64,000 nucleotides of DNA from Chiloscyllium plagiosum. Lineage: Eukaryota. A program made the translations under genes and the position numbers. Under the pieces are notes generated by a model. The model did no database searches. It worked only from the letters and a program-made list of their open reading frames with translations, and had not been told where the DNA came from. Shown piece after piece: positions 1 through 63,940 of the stretch; the first letter of the stretch is position 1; each line of letters opens with the position of its first letter. The stretch covers positions 5,014,416 to 5,078,415 of the forward strand of contig NC_057757.1 in the NCBI RefSeq assembly GCF_004010195.1. Direction: 5' to 3'.

Positions 1-644
1 CATGCAGGTGAATGTGTACATTAGGAGAGAAGTAGGTCATTCATCCCCTCAAGCCTGCACTGCTGTTCAGTACGACCATGTTTGCATTTCAAATTCTATG
101 TTCCAATCTCCCCCTTTAGCTCCTTTGCCTAATCAGAACCTATCCACCTTAGCCATAATCTTCAATGCAATGTGTGAAAAAGATTCATGCTCATGATGAT
201 CCTGAAGGAGTCATTTGTTCATAGGCAAAGAACCTGCTAATTTTTGCAGTGCCTGCATCGACTTCTGTGGAGTTTGAGTGGTATACTTAAACGGATTGGA
301 AGTTGTGCAATGTTGTATGTTGGGATGTGTTTTTTGTGAGCTGCTGCGCATGTGTGCAGCTTACAGGGAACATAGATCACTGGCCATTCAGCCCATAGAG
401 TCCATTCCAGTTGTCTCATGACTGGCTGTTCCACACCAATGATGAAACATTGCAAACTGTTGGCCAATATACAGGTCACCCATTCAAGTCAGGTGTGCAG
501 GCAATGGCAGAGCTGGTGGGGGAGGGAGAGAGGCATTTAGACAGTCGTCCTAAAGCCTGCTTTTGATGTAGTCCTGTTAATTAATGTTGAGTTTCAGAGA
601 CTCTGGGGTTTTGTTTTTAAAAACGTGTACACTTTCTGTTCCAG

Positions 645-7447: not shown

Positions 7448-10400
7448 AGTCATAAAGTCATAGAGATGTACAGCACAGAAACGAACCCTTCGGTCCAACT
7501 CGTCCATGCCAACCAGATATTCCAGTGTAATTTAGTCCCACTTGCCAGCTCCTAGCCCATACCCCTTCAAACCCTTTCTATTCATATACCCATGCAGAGG
7601 CCTTTTTAAATGTTGCAAGTGCACCAGCCTCCTCCACTTCCTCTGGCAGCTCATTCCATACACGTACCACCCTCTGTGGAAAAAGTTGCCTCATAGGTCT
7701 CTTTTATATCTTTCCCCCTCACCCTAAACCTATGCCCTCTAGTTCTGGACTGCCAAGCCCCAAATAGACTTTGTCTATTTATCCTATCCATGCCCCTCAT
7801 AATTTTGTAAACCTCTGTAAGGTCACCCCTCAGCCTCCGACGCTCCAGGGGAAACAGCCCCAGCCTGTTCAGCCTCTCCCTGTTGCTCAGATCCTCCAAC
7901 CCTGGCAACATCCTTGTAAATCTTTTCTGAACCCTTTCAAGTTTCACAACATCTTTCCGATAGGAAGGAGACCAGAATTGCACGCAATATTCCAACAGTG
8001 GCCTAACCAATGTCCTGTACAGCCGCAACATGACCTCCCAACTGCTGTACTCAATGCTCTGACCAATAAAGGAAAGCATACCAAACGCTGCCTTCTCTAT
8101 CCTATCTACCTTTGACTCCACTTTCAAGAAGCTATGAACCTGCACTCCAAGGTCTCTTTGTTCAGCAACACTCCCGAGGACCTTACCATTAAGTGTATAA
8201 ATCCTGCTAAGATTTGCTTTCCCAAAATGCAGCACCTCGCATTTATCTGAATTAAACTCCATCTGCCACTTCTCAGCCCATTGGCCCATCGGCCCATCTG
8301 GTCCAGATCCAGTTGTAATCTGAGGTAACCCTCTTCGCTGTCCACTACACCTCTAATTTTGGTGTCATCTGCAAAGTTACTAACTGTACCACTTATGCTC
8401 GCATACAAATCACTTATGTAAATGACCAAAAGTAGAAGGCCCAGCACCGATCCTTGTGGCACTCCACTGGTCACAGGCCTCCACCACCACCCTCTGTCTT
8501 CTACCCTTGAGCCAGTTCTGTATCCAAATGGCTAGTTCTCCCTGTATTCCGTGAGATCTAACCTTGTTAATCAGTCTCCCATGGGAACCTTGTCGAACGC
8601 CTTACTGAAGTCCACATAGATCACATGGACTCTGCCCTCATCAGTCGTCTTTATTACATCTTCAAAAAACTCAAATCAAGTTTGAGAGACATGATTTCCC
8701 ACGCACAAAGCCATGTTGACTATCCCGAATCAGACCTTGCCTTTCCAAGTACATGTACATCCTGTCCCTCAGGAATCCCTCCAACACCTTGCCCACCACC
8801 GAGGTCAGGCTCACCAGTCTATAGTTCCCTGGCTTATCTTTACCGCCCTTAAACAGTGGCATCACTTTTGCCAACCTCCAGTCTTCCGGCACCTCACCTG
8901 TGACTATCGATGATACAAATATCTCAGCAAGAGGTCCAGCAATCACTTCTCTCACTTCCTACAGAGTTCTCGGGTACACCTGATTAGGTCCTGAGGATTT
9001 ATCCACCTTTTAACCGTTTCAAGACATCCAGCACTTCCTCCTCTGTAATCTGGACATTTTGCAAGATGTCATCATCTATTTCCCTACAGTCTATATCTTC
9101 CATATCCTTTTCCACAGTAAATACTGATGCAAAATATTCATTTAGTATCTCCTCCAATTTCTGTGGCTCCACACAAAGGCCGCCTTGCTGATCTTTGAGG
9201 GGCCCTATTCTCTCCCTCGTTACCCTTTTGTCCCTAATATATTTGTAAAAACCCTCTTGGATTCTCCTTAATTCTATTTGCCAAAGGTATCTCATGTCCC
9301 CTTTTTGCCCTCCTGATTTCCCTCTTAAGTATACTCCTGCTTTCTTTATACTTAAGGATTCTTTATACTCGATCTATCCTGTCTATACCTGACATATGCT
9401 TTCTTCATTTTCTTAACCAAACCCTCAATTTCTTTCGTCATCCAGCATTCCCTATACCTACCAGCCTTCCCTTTCACCCTGGAATATACTTTCTCTGGAT
9501 TCTTGTTATCTCATTTCTGAAGGCTTCCCATTTTCCAGCCGTCCCTTTACCTGCGAACATCTGCCTCCAATCAGCTTTCGAAAGTTCTTGCCTAATACCG
9601 TCAAAATTGGCCTTTCTCCAATTTAGANNNNNNNNNNNNNNNNNNNNNNNNNNNNNNNNNNNNNNNNNNNNNNNNNNNNNNNNNNNNNNNNNNNNNNNNN
9701 NNNNNNNNNNNNNNNNNNNNNNNNNNNNNNNNNNNNNNNNNNNNNNNNNNNNNNNNNNNNNNNNNNNNNNNNNNNNNNNNNNNNNNNNNNNNNNNNNNNN
9801 NNNNNNNNNNNNNNNNNNNNNNNNNNNNNNNNNNNNNNNNNNNNNNNNNNNNNNNNNNNNNNNNNNNNNNNNNNNNNNNNNNNNNNNNNNNNNNNNNNNN
9901 NNNNNNNNNNNNNNNNNNNNNNNNNNNNNNNNNNNNNNNNNNNNNNNNNNNNNNNNNNNNNNNNNNNNNNNNNNNNNNNNNNNNNNNNNNNNNNNNNNNN
10001 NNNNNNNNNNNNNNNNNNNNNNNNNNNNNNNNNNNNNNNNNNNNNNNNNNNNNNNNNNNNNNNNNNNNNNNNNNNNNNNNNNNNNNNNNNNNNNNNNNNN
10101 NNNNNNNNNNNNNNNNNNNNNNNNNNNNNNNNNNNNNNNNNNNNNNNNNNNNNNNNNNNNNNNNNNNNNNNNNNNNNNNNNNNNNNNNNNNNNNNNNNNN
10201 NNNNNNNNNNNNNNNNNNNNNNNNNNNNNNNNNNNNNNNNNNNNNNNNNNNNNNNNNNNNNNNNNNNNNNNNNNNNNNNNNNNNNNNNNNNNNNNNNNNN
10301 NNNTGTAATCTCCCTTCAGAATCTCAACCTTTTCCCTTCCTATGCCATTGGTTCCAATGTGGACAATGACCTCCTGCTGCCCCCTCTCCCCCGTGAGAAC

Positions 10401-20865: not shown

Positions 20866-21032
20866 TCCCCACGTTTGTATCCTTCCTTAAAGAAGTGGAC
20901 TCGCCGTATGAGGTGCATGATTACATCCGTGCTTACCTGGGTGACACCCCGGAGGCCAAAGAGTTTGCCAAGCAGTTCCTGGAGCGTCGTGCCAAACAAA
21001 AGGCTAACCAGCAAAGGCAACAACAGCAACAG
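20866..21032 (+). CDS. GIGYF1: GIGYF1-like exon (VPTFVSFLKEVDSPYEVHDYIRAYLGDTPEAKEFAKQFLERRAKQKANQQRQQQQQ)
   Basis: gtcattgcag acceptor, CAG|gtagag donor, 167 nt, phase 1-0; near-identical to the conserved GIGYF C-terminal block. Confidence 0.95.
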
Positions 21033-22449
21033 GTAGAGTATGAATGATACAAATGCAGGACAGGCTCTGCTTTCCCATGCAACAGAGTACATCTTCCATA
21101 AGTCTGCAATATCTTTATTTTTACATATGTACCTAATGAATTGGCATTACATGGAGTTATGTTCCTTTTTTCAAACAACTGAAACCACTTTAGAAACCGG
21201 CAATCTTTTAATTTTATTTTTTATTTCATGTTTTCTCCATTCAGCCTTTACTTTTGGCTAGGGTTAAATTCTCCAGCTCGCTCACTAGTAATTTATTCTG
21301 TAGCTGTTTTTCTTTGGTTCAACATCCTCTGCACATTGTGGGAGAATAGCCCAGCTTCAAAGAATCTTAATTATTACAGCACAGAGGAAGACCATTCTCC
21401 ATTATACTTGCACGTCAACTAACGTGATTGGAAAAGCCAGTAACAATATTATGAAGCCTCGAGCCTGCACTTAGCTTTTTATATTTTGAGCTTAGGTTGC
21501 CAAAATTTGGGGCCAGGTTTTTTTGTACTCCACAATGTAAAGTTGGGTAGAGCATTGAATCTATCATCCATCCAACAGCTCTTTAGTTTCTTTTTGTTGT
21601 TTGTTTAGAAAGCTAGGAGAGGTTGATTAATGTTAGGCAAAATATCAAACAAAGCTGACAGCATTGAACAGGCAGGCAATTAATTGCACAATAAAACTAT
21701 TGAGTAGGTCCTTGGCCTTGGAAACTGTCTTGCATCATAGACTATTTCCAAAGTAGCACCAATTTAGAAAGGAGAGCCCCCACCCCCATGTGATGCATGT
21801 GGGTACTGTATGGTGGGATGCCTAACTCGTCCCCAAAGTAGAAGTCTTGTGGCACCCTGCCTCTAAGCCAGAAAGTCCAGGTTTGTGTCCAACTCCAGGA
21901 CCTGATGGCCACAGAAGGTGCATTTGTAACATGGCCAAGCATTGGTAGTCAGCCTGTTAATCTCGCACTCTGCCAATGGACTGTTGGAAAGAGCAGAAAA
22001 GTTTCCTGGTCAACTGTGCAGTGGATCCCAGCCCAGGATTAAATGGAAAAGGTTAGCCGCAAGGAGGACCAAACTGGCTATAAAACCTGCTTCCAAAATG
22101 AGCATTGTGGCAACCCTGCATAACATGGATAAAAGCAGAAAGGAAACCAGCACCACCCCACCCTGGCCAAGCGAGTGGTGACTGCCCTCAATCAAAGGCC
22201 AGAAATATTTTTTTTGGAAGGGTTACGTTTTTGAGTCCTTGTACTTGCTGAAACAAAAATTTATTCTTAAAATTATGGGCAAGGCTAACTACTGGCATTC
22301 ATTCCACCCATACACATACACGCGCATGCTTTGAATCACTGCAGTTCCTGCTATCATGGCAGGTAGGTCAGGACGTCCAGCATTTTGGCCCTGTAGTATT
22401 GAAAGGAGCAGCAAGAGGTTTTCTTTTATATTCTTTGATCAGATATAGA

Positions 22450-22760
22450 CATCGCTGGCAAGACCAATATTTGTTGTCTGTCCCTAATTGCCTTTGAACT
22501 GAATGGCTTGTTCTGCCATGTCAGAGGCTGGAAACACATAAGCCATATCTGGTAAGGGCAGCAGATTTCCTTCCAATGAAACAAATTGTTTTCTACGTCA
22601 GCTACCAATAGTCTAAGGAATGGTGTCAGTGACACCAGATTTCAGATTCAGGTATATTAATTGATTTTAAATTCTGCCAGCTACTGTGCTGGGATTTGAA
22701 CCCGTGTCTGTGAAGCATTAGTTTGGGTCTTTGAATAGTTCATTGACATTACTATTACCA
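22450..22760 (-). mobile_element. second shark tRNA-SINE family copy; host of the Penelope-like hairpin insertion
   Basis: GGATTTGAACCC box-B-like sequence (minus); head continues after 23146. Confidence 0.55.
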
Positions 22761-23131
22761 GGAGAAAGTGAGGTCTGCAGATGCTGGAGATCAAAGTTGA
22801 AACTTTATTGCTGGAACAGCACAGCAGGTCAGGCAGCATCCAGGGAACAGGAGATTCGACGTTTCGGGCACAGGCCCTTCCTGAAGAAGGGCCTGTGCCC
22901 GAAACGTCGAATCTCCTGTTCCCTGGATGCTGCCTGACCTGCTGTGCTGTTCCAGCAATAAAGTTTCAACTTTGATCTCCAGCATCTGCAGACCTCACTT
23001 TCTCCTCGAAGATTTCAACCTACTGCGAATCCTCTTACAAGGATGCCTTCCTTGAAGAAGCTCTCTGCCTCTCTCTACAAAGATCTCAGTGAGTCCCTCT
23101 CTCACTGCACACCCCAGGTCATCTCCTCTGC
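22761..23131 (+). mobile_element. Penelope-like element remnant with inverted pLTRs (perfect 121-bp arms) and 15-bp TSD
   Basis: 22760-22880 is the exact reverse complement of 22886-23006; ACATTACTATTACCA duplicated at 22746-22760 and 23132-23146. Confidence 0.85.
22878..22911 (+). ncRNA. minimal type-I hammerhead ribozyme motif (PLE-type)
   Basis: TTC-CTGAAGA-A-GGGC(CTGT)GCCC-GAAA-CG-TC-GAA: CUGANGA and GAAA cores, stem II, palindromic ACGU stem III, GUC cleavage triplet. Confidence 0.75.
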
Positions 23132-24017
23132 ACATTACTATTACCACACTACTCTACTATCTTCCCTCTAATTTGGAGAAGATTTTATACCCAGACACTT
23201 GCTATCTTTGTTTTTCTCAGTGGTTGAGACCCCAGTTTTTGAAGGAGTGTTGAGTTGTTGCAGCGTATCAATGTAGATGGGCTGCTTATCTTTAAAGATA
23301 ACAGTCTTATCCTAATCTCTAAGTTTATAGCTCTCTGCTTTATTTAATTAAAGCAAACTGGTGTGAGCACTGGGGACAGGCAGTGTGAGGTAGGAGGCCA
23401 AGTCTTGCATCAATGTGATGCGATGTCTACAGGATGTACACTATTTGGAGAATGAAGTCTATACAGGGTGTGACAAGATCTGTGACCTTATCTCACACGC
23501 CCACTGTGTCATCGTACTCTCTTTTGGCAGTTGCTAGTGTTCGATTTTTATCTGCCTCTTGGTTATGGGACAGTTTATGGAATAGAGGGGAAACTCATGG
23601 CGGTGATGGGGGAACTGAGTAAGTTTGAATTGTCTTCAGTGCAAGTAACATTCTTCAAACCTATGACTAAACATAATGTGGGGGTTCCATGCAGTTGGGT
23701 CAATAGTTACTGATTAAGGTCTCCATGTTGGTTATGTATAGTTGTATATGGAAAGCAGTTGTATATCAGCAAACATCAGTTAGTAACTAGCCTCATCCTG
23801 AATAAGCACTTTATCTTCTGAGCACTTGGGTTGTGAGGGCAAATTCTGGGAAAATATCTCCCTCCCTCCCTGCCTTTTTATCCTTGCCTCATGGGTTTCC
23901 TGATCTTTGGGGGGGATATGTCCTATCACTGAATCATGTGCCACAGTAATGTGCAGCGGACAATGTGTTTGGATCGAATTCCCTGAGGATTTATGGTGTT
24001 TTCCCTTTCTTTCCTAG

Positions 24018-24077
24018 TTAACAAAGGAACTTTTAAGCCTCACTGGGAACCTCGCTCTGCAGCCTGACAGGTTACAG
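24018..24077 (+). CDS. GIGYF1: candidate in-frame (possibly alternative) GIGYF1 exon LTKELLSLTGNLALQPDRLQ
   Basis: strong acceptor tttttccctttctttcctag, CAG|gttagc donor, 60 nt, stop-free, phase 0-0 inside a phase-0 intron. Confidence 0.6.
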
Positions 24078-25771
24078 GTTAGCATGGAACTTTTTTTTTC
24101 CAGCCTATCTCGTTGCTGCCATAGACAGCAGACCAAGTGAAGGATTGTGTTTTGGTGATGTTTAATGGCTCTTGAGTCTGGTGAAAGCTGTTACTTGTTC
24201 AAAGGATGGTATATCAGGCCACCCAACCCAAGGAGGAATGCTAAATACTTAGTCACAAGTAATGTTTTGCATGACCATTCTAACTTGGTATACTTACTTT
24301 ATTCATGTGTATTTTGGATTATAGAACAGTTCAGTTTAAAGCATGTATTTTGGAAATTGACTATAGAAAAGAACTGTCTTTTTTTTTAAAACAATTATAT
24401 TAAATAAATTGCCATAATCAGATGAAGCAAACAGCATGAATCTCACCATATCACCTTGAGGAAGAGTAGATGTGAAGAGGGCAGACCTTAGAAAGATTGT
24501 AAGGTTGGAGGAAAGGGATGTAGGTGACGGTGTTATTTTGGGACTCAGTTTCAAAGAGTGTAGTCTGACAGAATGGAACTCTGACATTGGCATGAAGAAA
24601 AGGAGGTGGGCAGGAATCAGCCTGTGACCTGGATTGGATTAAGAACTGGCGGGATGCAGAAGTTGAAGTTGGAAGCATTGTGCTGCAAGGAATCAGTGGA
24701 AGCCAGCAAAGACTGGGGAAGGTTGGTGTGTGGAAATGGATGTGATAAAGGAGGAAAAATAATTGAACTCTATAAATTTCAGCGTTAGCTGGGATTGTCG
24801 TGGCTGGCCAGAAGAGCTGCTGTCAATTTCAGTAGGTGATTTTTGTTGCCTCAAAGAGTTTTACTATCAAATTGATGTTGAATGAGGGCAAATGACCCAT
24901 TGAACAGCTTAAACGATGCATTGTTGAGATACAGCAAATAGTCTGAGCCTAGAGTTTGGTGCCAAACATCCTAAACTTGGCCGCCATGTCAGATTTCCCA
25001 GTTGCCACGGCCTGCAGCAGTTTCTCAGGCTGTGATGTGCAGCCAACAGCAGTGTCGATAATGTGACTTTTCATGCTTAGAGTGAGTCATGAATAGGCTA
25101 ACCTTTGAAGGCTGTCACTCCCCCTCATCATCCATTGTTGTGCCATATAATCAAAATGGCTCCAAACCTGCTATCTGTTTTAGCGATAAGAGCATGTGTG
25201 GAATAGTTCCCACATAAGCAGCATCCACTGATGCTCCCAGTTGAGTACTGCACACATCGGCCACCTGACCACCGCAATATTTGCCTCATGACTTACCTAA
25301 CGGAAATAATTCTGTAACTTTCCAAAGTTGGATTGGGATGAGTTGGGGAGAGGGGTATGAAAAGGGAGCCAGGTGTGACTTAATGTTGCTTTGTGTGGAG
25401 CGATATTGGCGGGTCCTGACTTTGCGATTTGGTCACTGGTTCTGTCCTGCTTTTCCCTTAGCTTGCTCTTTGCTGAAGATGCCAGCTCATGAAGGGTTCA
25501 ATTTCCACACATGCTGGTGGCCTTATGGCCTTATCCAAGTAATAGGGACACTTGTGCCCAGCCTCAGTTGCCTGTGGAGGCAGCATGTAGACTTCCACGA
25601 GGGCTCAGGAGTTGAAGCAGAGACTGCGTGTGCTTCCTGTCCTCATTAGCAAATCTTGCCCCCACAAGTCAAGGGGCACTGAATGCAACCCTACTGCCCA
25701 CACAACTGATTACAGTTGCTCCTTAAAAGGATTGTGACAAACTAATTGTGTGATGGCTTCTCTTGTGCCAG

Positions 25772-25919
25772 GACTCCATCTGGGGAATCGGTTCAAACAG
25801 CCTACAGTCACTCTTCCAGGGTAATCACAACAGTGCACAGCAGTCGTCTTACGAGAGCTCTCAAGCTGGGAAAAAGAAAAAGAAGCAAAAGATGGTGCGG
25901 GCTGATCCTAGTATCCTGG
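25772..25919 (+). CDS. GIGYF1: GIGYF1-like penultimate exon (DSIWGIGSNSLQSLFQ...GKKKKKQKMVRADPSILG)
   Basis: tctcttgtgccag acceptor, G|gtaaga donor, 148 nt, phase 0-1; KKKKKQKMVRADPS motif. Confidence 0.93.
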
Positions 25920-33527: not shown

Positions 33528-33705
33528 GTAAAAGCCAAAAGAACTGCAGATACTGTAAATCAGAAACAAAAACAGACACTGCTGGAAAAGCTTCTGTGGA
33601 GGAGAATCAGAGTTAATGTTTCTGGTCAAAAGGTTAACTCTGATTTCTCTCCACAGCTGCTGCCAGACCTACTGAGCTTTTCCAGCAGTTTCTATTTTTG
33701 TTCCT
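33528..33705. repeat. short inverted-repeat (Penelope-pLTR-like) insertion within an L2 fragment
   Basis: CTGCTGGAAAAGCT..AATCAGAGTTAA versus TTAACTCTGATT..AGCTTTTCCAGCAG. Confidence 0.65.
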
Positions 33706-35392: not shown

Positions 35393-35472
35393 TAGTGTGT
35401 GGTACTGGAAAAGCGCAGCAGGTCAGGCAGCATCTGAGGAGCAGGAAAATCAACGTTTTGGACTAAAGGCCA
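35393..35472 (-). mobile_element. fragment of the same Penelope-like pLTR as 22761
   Basis: GGAAAAGCGCAGCAGGTCAGGCAGCATC..GAGCAGGA..ACGTTT. Confidence 0.75.
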
Positions 35473-44918: not shown

Positions 44919-44947
44919 CTGACGAAGGAGCGGCGCTCCGAAAGCTA
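44919..44947 (+). ncRNA. minimal hammerhead ribozyme motif (PLE-type)
   Basis: CTGACGA-A-GGAGC(GGC)GCTCC-GAAA-GC-TA with palindromic AGCU stem III. Confidence 0.72.
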
Positions 44948-45046
44948 GCGCTTCCAATTAAATCTGTTGAACTTTCACCTGGTGTTGTGTGATTTTTAAC
45001 TTTGTACACCCCAGTCCAACACCGGCATCTCCAAATCATCAGCAGA

Positions 45047-57307: not shown

Positions 57308-57468
57308 AAACCAAAAGGACTGCAGATGCTGTAAAAAAGAGATAAAATAGAAAATAGATGTTGCTGGAAAAGCTCTGCAAGTCTGGCTGCATCTGTGGAG
57401 AGAAATCAGAATTAACATTTTGGGTTGAGTGAACCTTCCTCAAAACATTAACTCTGATTTCTCTACAC
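57308..57468. repeat. short inverted-repeat (Penelope-pLTR-like) insertion into a CR1 3' UTR with ~14-bp TSD
   Basis: AGTTGAA(C/T)CAAAGG at 57294-57307 and 57469-57482; GAGAAATCAGAATTAA / TTAACTCTGATTTCTC arms. Confidence 0.7.
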
Positions 57469-57879: not shown

Positions 57880-57975
57880 TTCATTCCTGAAGGGCTTTTG
57901 CGCGAAACATCAATTTTCCTGCTCCTCGGATGCTGCCTGACCTGCTGTGCTTTTCCAGCACCATGCTTTAATCGT
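57880..57975 (+). mobile_element. Penelope-like pLTR fragment with decayed hammerhead
   Basis: ATTCCTGAAGGGCTTTTGCGCGAAACATC...GGATGCTGCCTGACCTGCTG. Confidence 0.7.
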
Positions 57976-63324: not shown

Positions 63325-63940
63325 GGAGTTGTTAATGTTGCTAAACTAGTAATCCAGAGGCCCAGACAAAATGTAGTAAGAGTCTAGATTAGAGTGGTGC
63401 TGGAAAAGCACAGCAGGTCAGGCAGCATCCGAGGAGCAGGAAAACAACCTGCAGTGCTTTTCCAGCACCACTCTAATCTAGGCTCTGGTTTGCAGTCCTT
63501 GTTTTTACCAAAATGTAGTTAGTCATGGGACCCACTGCATTATTTAGTGGATTTAAATTCAATTAAGAAAGAACTGCTAGTCTCAACAATGGTGACTGTG
63601 AAAGTATCATCTGTACTCTTACTAAATCTATCTTGTTCACTAATGTCCTTTTAAGTGATGGTGTCACTAGACCAGTAATCCAAAACGCTATGTAAATGTT
63701 CTGGGGTCATGGATTTTGAATCCTACCATAGCAAATTCGAAATCAATAAATATTTAGAACGAAAAAAACTGGCCTATTGGCAAGAATGCAAATACGTTAA
63801 TTGTCACAAAATCCCATCTGGTTCACTAATGTCTTGTTTAAGGAAGGAAATTTGAGATCTTCACCTGGTCTGACCTCCATGTGACTCCAGACCCACAACA
63901 ATGTAAATGACTCTTAGCTGACCTCTGAAATCCTCAAATA
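63325..63940 (+). mobile_element. two tandem copies of the second shark tRNA-SINE family
   Basis: repeated (GTCACTAGAC/TAAAC)..AGTAATCCA heads at ~63340 and ~63660, with shared GTTCACTAATGTC bodies. Confidence 0.55.
63378..63508. mobile_element. short Penelope-like inverted-pLTR insertion with 11-bp TSD inside a SINE
   Basis: TAGATTAGAGTGGTGCTGGAAAAGCAC / GTGCTTTTCCAGCACCACTCTAATCTA arms; CAAAATGTAGT at 63367-63377 and 63509-63519. Confidence 0.8.

Follow-up and report, generated by a model that had tools for sequence, protein, structure and literature searches.

The window (the whole 64-kb stretch of DNA analysed, whose sole gap is a 676-nt run of N at 9628-10303) contains a single perfect palindrome with arms of at least 25 nt and a loop of at most 12 nt, the hairpin at 22760-23006. 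Its arms (22760-22880 and 22886-23006) are 121 nt each, 100% complementary and 5 nt apart, with CTGAA as the apex loop, exactly as given in a preliminary description of this DNA, which had reported 121-bp arms free of mismatches. The hairpin is part of a 371-bp insert without an ORF, bounded by an exact 15-nt target-site duplication (TSD) whose two copies (22746-22760 and 23132-23146, plus strand) are identical, as had also been claimed. Base 22760 plays a double role, as the final base of the left TSD and the first base of the arm, and the right TSD agrees over its first 3 nt with the continuation of the element.

We number the sense unit of the element from q1 = 22878, which places the first ATG of its ORF at q166. 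The left arm (22760..22880, minus strand) is an inverted pLTR of a Penelope-like element (PLE), running from family position q129 to q9 and lacking the CUGA core; its outer end is the family start site B. The right arm (22886..23006, plus strand) is a sense pLTR containing both family start sites, A (q~93, 22970) and B (q~129, 23006), and is followed on the same strand by the 5' part of a PLE (23007..23134), made up of the leader and the first 30 codons of the ORF from the ATG at 23043, a frame that is long in other copies. The right end of the insert, at q254-257, is an uncommon one, and leaves a tail of about 125-128 nt beyond site B. The pLTRs meet head to head at a 3-nt TTC/GAA microhomology (22878..22880, plus strand), which doubles as the shortened 5' strand of stem I in a minimal type-I hammerhead (22878..22911, plus strand), identified by sequence and folding and with the architecture set out in the available text of PMC4209133. 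Splice-like signals were additionally seen on the host strand at 22990-23095: a pyrimidine tract, inside the hairpin stem, with AG at 23010-23011, and GTGAGT at 23089. The AG, which lies 4 nt downstream of site B, and the GTGAGT would delimit a 77-nt frameshifting exon.

The insert lies on the sense strand of the host intron 21033-24017, and the intronic location and orientation proposed earlier are supported by RNA joints flanking that intron. The joints 21032-24018 and 24077-25772 were found in 4 and 5 reads of run X21, respectively, and in one contig of organism B. They define an upstream exon (20866..21032, plus strand, start approximate) and, by joints on both sides, an in-frame 60-nt exon (24018..24077, plus strand), which lies 872 nt downstream of the insert and is spliced in organisms A and B. 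For this exon, previously put forward as a candidate cassette exon, spliced inclusion was confirmed and a cassette nature was not, no exon-skipping joint being present among the 15 joints listed of 77. From a C-terminal peptide, we take the host gene to be GIGYF. The insertion target is an old interspersed repeat (22600..22759, minus strand), with 72-91% identity at 39 other places among 40 scored, which carries a B-box-like motif and, judging from that motif, is likely to be a tRNA-derived SINE.

The insertion is a young polymorphism, in agreement with the recent origin first suggested. In 4/4 runs from other samples, a single contig with contiguous record coordinates links 22745 to 23132 and skips 386 nt, equal to the insert plus one copy of the TSD, and a 7,091-nt contig from the possible source sample X1 has the same empty-site join. 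The empty site is therefore found in 5/5 DNA-like runs, although such contigs show the presence of an allele rather than its absence, and the five runs may include carriers. With a common empty allele, the insert can be no more than polymorphic. In the window copy, both arms are identical to the commonest form of the youngest subfamily (49/92 arm pairs).

The filled allele appears in none of the listed reads or contig pieces, most pieces lying outside those listed, and thus the insertion itself rests on the assembly. If repeat reads had been misplaced into the intron during assembly, it would be natural for every run, X1 included, to give only the empty site among the pieces listed. We nevertheless consider such an artefact extremely unlikely: the TSD is exact and typical of the family, the insert ends exactly at site B, contigs drop rare branches that lead into high-copy repeats, and the window, with G at 22417, departs from all five runs, which have A there, so that it must represent another haplotype or animal. 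Differences between the window and the X1 contig were seen at 22417, 24430 and 24436.

Family membership of the insert

The locus is not a special one, because the 36-nt ribozyme motif has 11,888 exact occurrences in the genome and the 35-nt apex has 189, including that in the window (reversed controls, 0 in both cases). When the insert was used as a DNA query, 40 of 3,077 candidates yielded at least 134 matches, in many of which the inverted layout recurs. The 189 identical apexes, with a TSD of 10-16 nt in 26/30 cases examined, bear out the earlier opinion that the palindrome is not a fold-back assembly artefact, as far as can be told.

We identified coding sequences of the parent element ahead of the same pLTR. 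At locus L230, a GxAMG motif, YIDD and a GIY-YIG-like motif lie in one frame, followed by pLTR q1-99 at 100% identity, and at L223 a Pfam RVT_1 domain (32.6 bits, against a cut-off of 29.6) is followed by the pLTR of the window, q1-129, at 100% identity. The Pfam GIY-YIG domain was matched at E values of 1.6e-4 to 1.2e-3 in 3/3 frames (L093, L199, L230), each slightly under the curated cut-off. As the same pLTR ends frames encoding reverse transcriptase (RT) and GIY-YIG, the window copy is a PLE stub, and the initial assignment, to the pLTR of a PLE that bears a minimal type-I hammerhead and has an inverted partner, is upheld. The family thus has a parent with a PLE-type RT (L223), a C-terminal GIY-YIG endonuclease (EN) in the same frame (L230), a pLTR composed of the 3' flank and the 5' start of the ORF in partial tandems, and an inverted 5' pLTR with a tail at one end and a TSD. 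No intact full-length element was found among 21 long loci, most of which contain assembly gaps.

The insert is ordinary in kind, belonging to a known class with an already published architecture. In the available text of PMC3846280, Pen2a_Av of Adineta vaga has an inverted pLTR, a junction overlap, a tail and a TSD, read as the outcome of self-priming, and PLE tails are often found at one end only, which the accessible part of PMC8557442 reads as resolution by the EN. The window family resembles Pen2a_Av and other EN+ PLEs in its head-to-head pLTRs, overlapping junction, TSD and parent with RT plus a GIY-YIG domain at the C terminus; the one-sided tails of 30-40 nt in EN+ PLEs correspond to the 36 nt between sites A and B here. 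Unlike Pen2a_Av, as there described, the window copy consists of 371 bp without an ORF and has 128 nt past site B at its right end, while its family is present in thousands of copies and follows the one-end tail rule almost absolutely (39/39 canonical pairs).

Other classes of element were considered and rejected. A MITE or fold-back DNA transposon does not fit the asymmetric ends (A versus B), the sequence derived from an RT element, or the TSD of 13-17 nt, a length found in 34/43 head-to-head family copies of a position-ordered sample (shorter in 3, none in 6). A non-LTR retrozyme, with unit-length repeats arranged head to tail and bounded by the ribozyme cut, does not fit a single head-to-head unit with 0/108 inner ends at q29-35. 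For a microRNA gene, the 8 matches to Rfam miRNA models were all far below the gathering score, and an exapted regulatory element was likewise rejected.

Older copies of the same PLE family were seen in the window at 33658, 35405-35471, 57316-57393, 57889-57960 and 63398-63441. A different, second hammerhead-like motif with a longer stem (CTGACGA...GAAA) lies at 44919-44960 and is likely to come from another PLE family.

The hammerhead and its predicted folds

The ribozyme core that had been recognised in the loop, CTGAAGA-A-GGGC(CTGT)GCCC-GAAA-CG-TC, is present on the host sense strand. It runs from 22881 to C22908, with an extra A ahead of stem II (22889-22900) and a palindromic ACGU in place of stem III, and cleavage is predicted after C22908. 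We found the core elements CUGANGA, GAAA and UH, the G10.1-C11.1 pair of helix II and the palindromic 15.2-16.2 positions expected of a minimal type-I hammerhead. Helix I, for which 4-5 bp are expected, has 3 bp in the window copy, against 4 bp in native copies (L035). An Rfam scan at E<=10 did not recover the motif: it gave 10 matches, none to a hammerhead family and all under the gathering score. The window ribozyme shares with the metazoan PLE hammerheads of PMC4209133, in so far as the available text describes them, a conserved core, an extra nucleotide between 9 and 10.1, G10.1-C11.1, the palindromic 15.2-16.2 and the absence of helix III. It differs from them in its 4-bp helix II, in a helix I that the inversion join has shortened to 3 bp, and in having no cis partner; no second ribozyme copy was found on the plus strand up to the end of the gene within the window. 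A tandem layout was seen elsewhere, at L146 (G000:C8:24157535-24158622), where five partial units each begin at the hammerhead or just before it, which would permit a dimeric ribozyme to assemble.

For a native copy, the minimum free energy structure is a hammerhead-like fold with helices I and II and a 4-bp helix I. For the window copy without its left arm, helix I is predicted to form with a probability of 0.03-0.05, and with the left arm the hairpin is predicted to be favoured by 47.2 kcal/mol and to form before the core is complete. The mutual exclusion of hairpin and ribozyme postulated earlier is therefore supported in silico, with 47 kcal/mol in favour of the hairpin.

We additionally examined RNA reads from run X21, which, as single-cell poly(A) fragments amounting to 2% of the run, are weak evidence. 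The 493 reads on the window stretch fall nearly all on the element and hence derive from the family at large. They span the cut site unbroken, with depths of 80, 82, 83 and 85 at 22893-22915 and no pile-up of read ends anywhere. Two T>C places, in 3/47 and 3/34 reads but in 0/23 and 0/9 of the opposite class of strand, fit A-to-I editing in their strand, although the reads are family-wide and without DNA of the same animal, and three A>G places are variable in DNA too. Intronic reads on either side of the insert were absent, and run X22 contributed no reads to the stretch; ADAR or Dicer processing, a cruciform in the DNA and an influence on the exon would be candidate effects of this locus.

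These results bear on the proposal that the inverted arm cages the ribozyme and so shields the host transcript. According to the available text of PMC4209133, a single minimal hammerhead shows no detectable cleavage and dimers show low activity; that of PMC11167929 states that the hammerhead of an Anolis PLE requires the PLE protein and is dispensable for insertion, and that no reads end at the cut site. Because a lone minimal hammerhead is inactive, stem I has 3 bp and there is no second plus-strand copy, there is little for the host to be protected from. The ribozyme of the window copy is thus likely to be inactive, and the proposal is weakened further in that the inverted arm is absent from 32/77 sampled copies and family reads are uninterrupted at the cut site. 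The cage is real as a predicted fold, but its protective role is not supported.

We consider it very unlikely that the arm is retained as a cage over an active ribozyme, protecting the host pre-mRNA, or that it feeds ADAR or Dicer and so regulates the 60-nt exon. The calculated advantage of the hairpin and its predicted formation ahead of the complete core agree with such a role, ADAR could plausibly, on general grounds, act on a perfect duplex of 121 bp, and the A>G signal (3/47 and 3/34 family reads, one strand class) is strand-consistent, if faint. However, the insert is absent from 5/5 other DNA-like data sets, the monomer is inactive (PMC4209133) and, in Anolis, protein-dependent (PMC11167929), both in the parts available, and stem I has its low predicted probability even without the left arm. 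The even depth across the cut site without piled-up ends, and the 32/77 armless copies, tell against it equally.

Insertion ends and the origin of head-to-head copies

We investigated the ends of family copies in the insertions behind the first 100 listed motif matches in position order (n=84), of which 7 next to N gaps were excluded, with site A defined as q86-105 (q~93) and site B as q123-142 (q~129), 36 nt apart. The 77 insertions comprise 43 head-to-head copies, 32 single-armed copies and 2 others. Single-armed copies end at A in 17 cases and at B in 15. Among the head-to-head copies (n=43), 39 pair A with B and 4 pair B with another end, and neither A+A nor B+B was found (0 each), a pairing with p = 1.8e-12 under independent choice (39/39 at 0.5) and p = 1.5e-11 with four related copies collapsed (36/36). 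Among the 189 same-apex copies, the first 30, of which 3 also belong to the position-ordered sample, gave 28 A+B and 2 unresolved copies by gapped alignment (24 A+B by ungapped extension, which indels stopped in the rest). Multi-kb inserts with both ends visible were A+B in 11/11 cases, with internal gaps; the 21 long loci divide into these 11, 1 complex locus and 9 with one visible end.

Of the inner ends, 66/108 lie at q-3..4 and 0/108 at q29-35, by which the ribozyme cut was rejected as the source of insert ends. The inner 5' ends cluster at TCATTCC, just ahead of the hammerhead, a motif that we take to be initiator-like, and the q-3..4 cluster is likely to mark the transcription start.

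A third main start site at q257, where the window copy ends, was also considered and rejected: among 29 tail-motif loci, 1 ends at 257, without an evident TSD, and most of the long tails continue into another pLTR. Three loci found with queries ending at q258-272 (L030, L152, L155) are flanked by a TSD; one of their ends is canonical, and the right end lies in the ORF start, at q258-272. The sense piece of L152 and of L155 is internal to the element, like that of an L1-type inversion.

The two arms were compared in two-segment A+B copies (n=38). In 15 of them the A arm reaches 10 nt or more beyond the point where the B arm ends, the reverse holds in 2 and the arms are level in 21; with related copies collapsed, the ratio is 13:2 (p = 0.007). 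Non-nested arms each hold sequence missing from the other, so that neither can have been copied from the other. In same-apex copies, the loop-bearing arm is the A arm in 14 and the B arm in 14 (of 28).

These observations speak to self-priming, in which the first cDNA would fold its 3' GAA onto TTC and copy itself, with the tail produced by EN resolution of the intermediate. On the minus strand, the apex does have precisely the form of this mini-hairpin, the short arm of the window copy is nested in the long arm, and both the palindromic junctions (PMC3846280) and the tail (PMC8557442) have been read in this way, in the portions of those papers available. However, a self-copied arm must nest within its template, and arms are non-nested in 15/38 A+B copies; in 14/28 same-apex copies the loop belongs to the A arm, the shorter of the two; and the reading leaves unexplained why an arm stops exactly at a site used by single-armed copies. 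Since a self-copying hairpin cannot give non-nested arms, simple snap-back is excluded for such copies and self-priming is largely refuted for them; for the hairpin of the window we hold it to be improbable. The window copy alone is compatible with snap-back, and does not show the A+B rule because its right end, q257, is neither A nor B.

The A+B pairing, together with the non-nested arms, rules out a simple snap-back and speaks for priming at both nicks of the target. In such an event, the PLE protein would cut both target strands about 14-15 nt apart, and each target 3' end would prime cDNA at an internal pLTR site, one at A (q~93) and the other at B (q~129). Both cDNAs would extend to q~0, just ahead of the hammerhead and probably the 5' end of the uncleaved RNA, and their 3' ends would be joined through a short microhomology (TTC/GAA in the window copy) and filled in. 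In the window copy, the left cDNA would have started at B and the right cDNA deeper inside the element, at q~257. Within the host pre-mRNA, the two arms would base-pair and conceal a ribozyme that probably has no activity anyway. That the B arm trails may point to a single shared RNA template.

In the 5' inversions of L1 elements, attributed to twin priming, both target nicks prime cDNA, and the products are joined at microhomology within a TSD. There, the annealing site of the second primer varies, and each cDNA spans a different part of the RNA; unlike L1, the cDNAs of the window family start at fixed sites and span the same part of the RNA, giving a palindrome.

Priming from both nicks matches the behaviour of the Anolis carolinensis element Poseidon PAc (PMC11167929), whose protein, according to the available text, cuts and extends both strands in vitro from two adjacent internal start sites, works on RNA that is uncleaved and is predicted to be dimeric. 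On the other side, top and bottom strands are there reported not to differ in their start sites, a pairing of the two sites per event is not reported, and inverted copies are not treated. As in PAc, the window family has a hammerhead in its pLTR and two adjacent internal RT start sites, and genomic ends fall on the start sites and not on the hammerhead cut site. Unlike in PAc, these sites lie 5' of the first ATG of the ORF (q93 and q129; ATG at q166), and the core CUGAAGA is without an ATG, the PAc ORF starting in the ribozyme.

We additionally identified joins that are shared between loci. An unusual head-to-head join recurs at 9/30 loci (L005, L006, L008, L010, L011, L016, L017, L019 and L025, near 1627-1634), 8 of them with their own TSD and one, L019, with A and B swapped, and a spare tandem pLTR was seen at all 9. 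A second inherited composite join was found at L038, L051 and L141 (3 in the position-ordered sample). Identical non-element sequence 3' of q~104 was seen in L038, L051, L140 and L141, longer palindromic copies, and is the transduced flank of a re-mobilised composite. Variants common to both arms (16/92 pairs) fit a common source, and equally conversion or the activity of one subfamily at a time.

Palindromic masters thus seem to be copied as units. Such masters could be transcribed whole and the two cDNAs annealed through their arms, so that each copy would inherit its junction and have just its ends set anew, to A and B. The identical unusual joins at 9 loci with differing TSDs, the swapped ends of L019 and the second composite in L038, L051 and L141 all argue for this. 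As an account of the window hairpin, we nonetheless find it doubtful: most joins in the position-ordered sample differ from one another, a microhomology of 3 nt is all that the window join needs, and this join is found again in an older subfamily (L007), and the window copy lacks a spare unpaired pLTR. Copying from masters is, moreover, one form of two-ended priming and not a competitor of it.

Implications for Penelope-like elements

On balance, the hairpin is a very young polymorphic stub of an endonuclease-bearing PLE, with two pLTR copies head to head in one TSD, probably laid down by priming from both nicked strands and probably without a host function. That it is a by-product of two-ended integration, the variant with an inherited junction included, we hold with considerable confidence. 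We lean only slightly towards the fuller model of a programmed twin priming, in which an asymmetric dimer would write two cDNAs, one per nicked strand, from fixed sites 36 nt apart on uncleaved RNA. No paper stating twin priming for PLEs was found in a search that was thin on subscription literature, including the PLE reviews of 2005-2006, and no passage on inverted copies was found in the accessible part of a 2026 retrozyme preprint.

The locus itself is of little weight, being one young insertion among an estimated several thousand similar ones (extrapolated from the 43/77 sampled insertions that are head to head). It could be used as a presence/absence marker, and could offer a natural test of the effect of a perfect intronic duplex on splicing.

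The statistics of the family carry more weight, since the formation of inverted repeats and tails in PLEs is called undefined in the available text of PMC8557442. If programmed twin priming is true, the inverted pLTR and the one-sided tail would mark the same step, and no separate second-strand priming would be needed. From the A+B rule and the non-nested arms follows a precise expectation for the in vitro system already at hand (PMC11167929), and a reverse transcriptase that writes from both cut ends would be of interest to genome-writing work.
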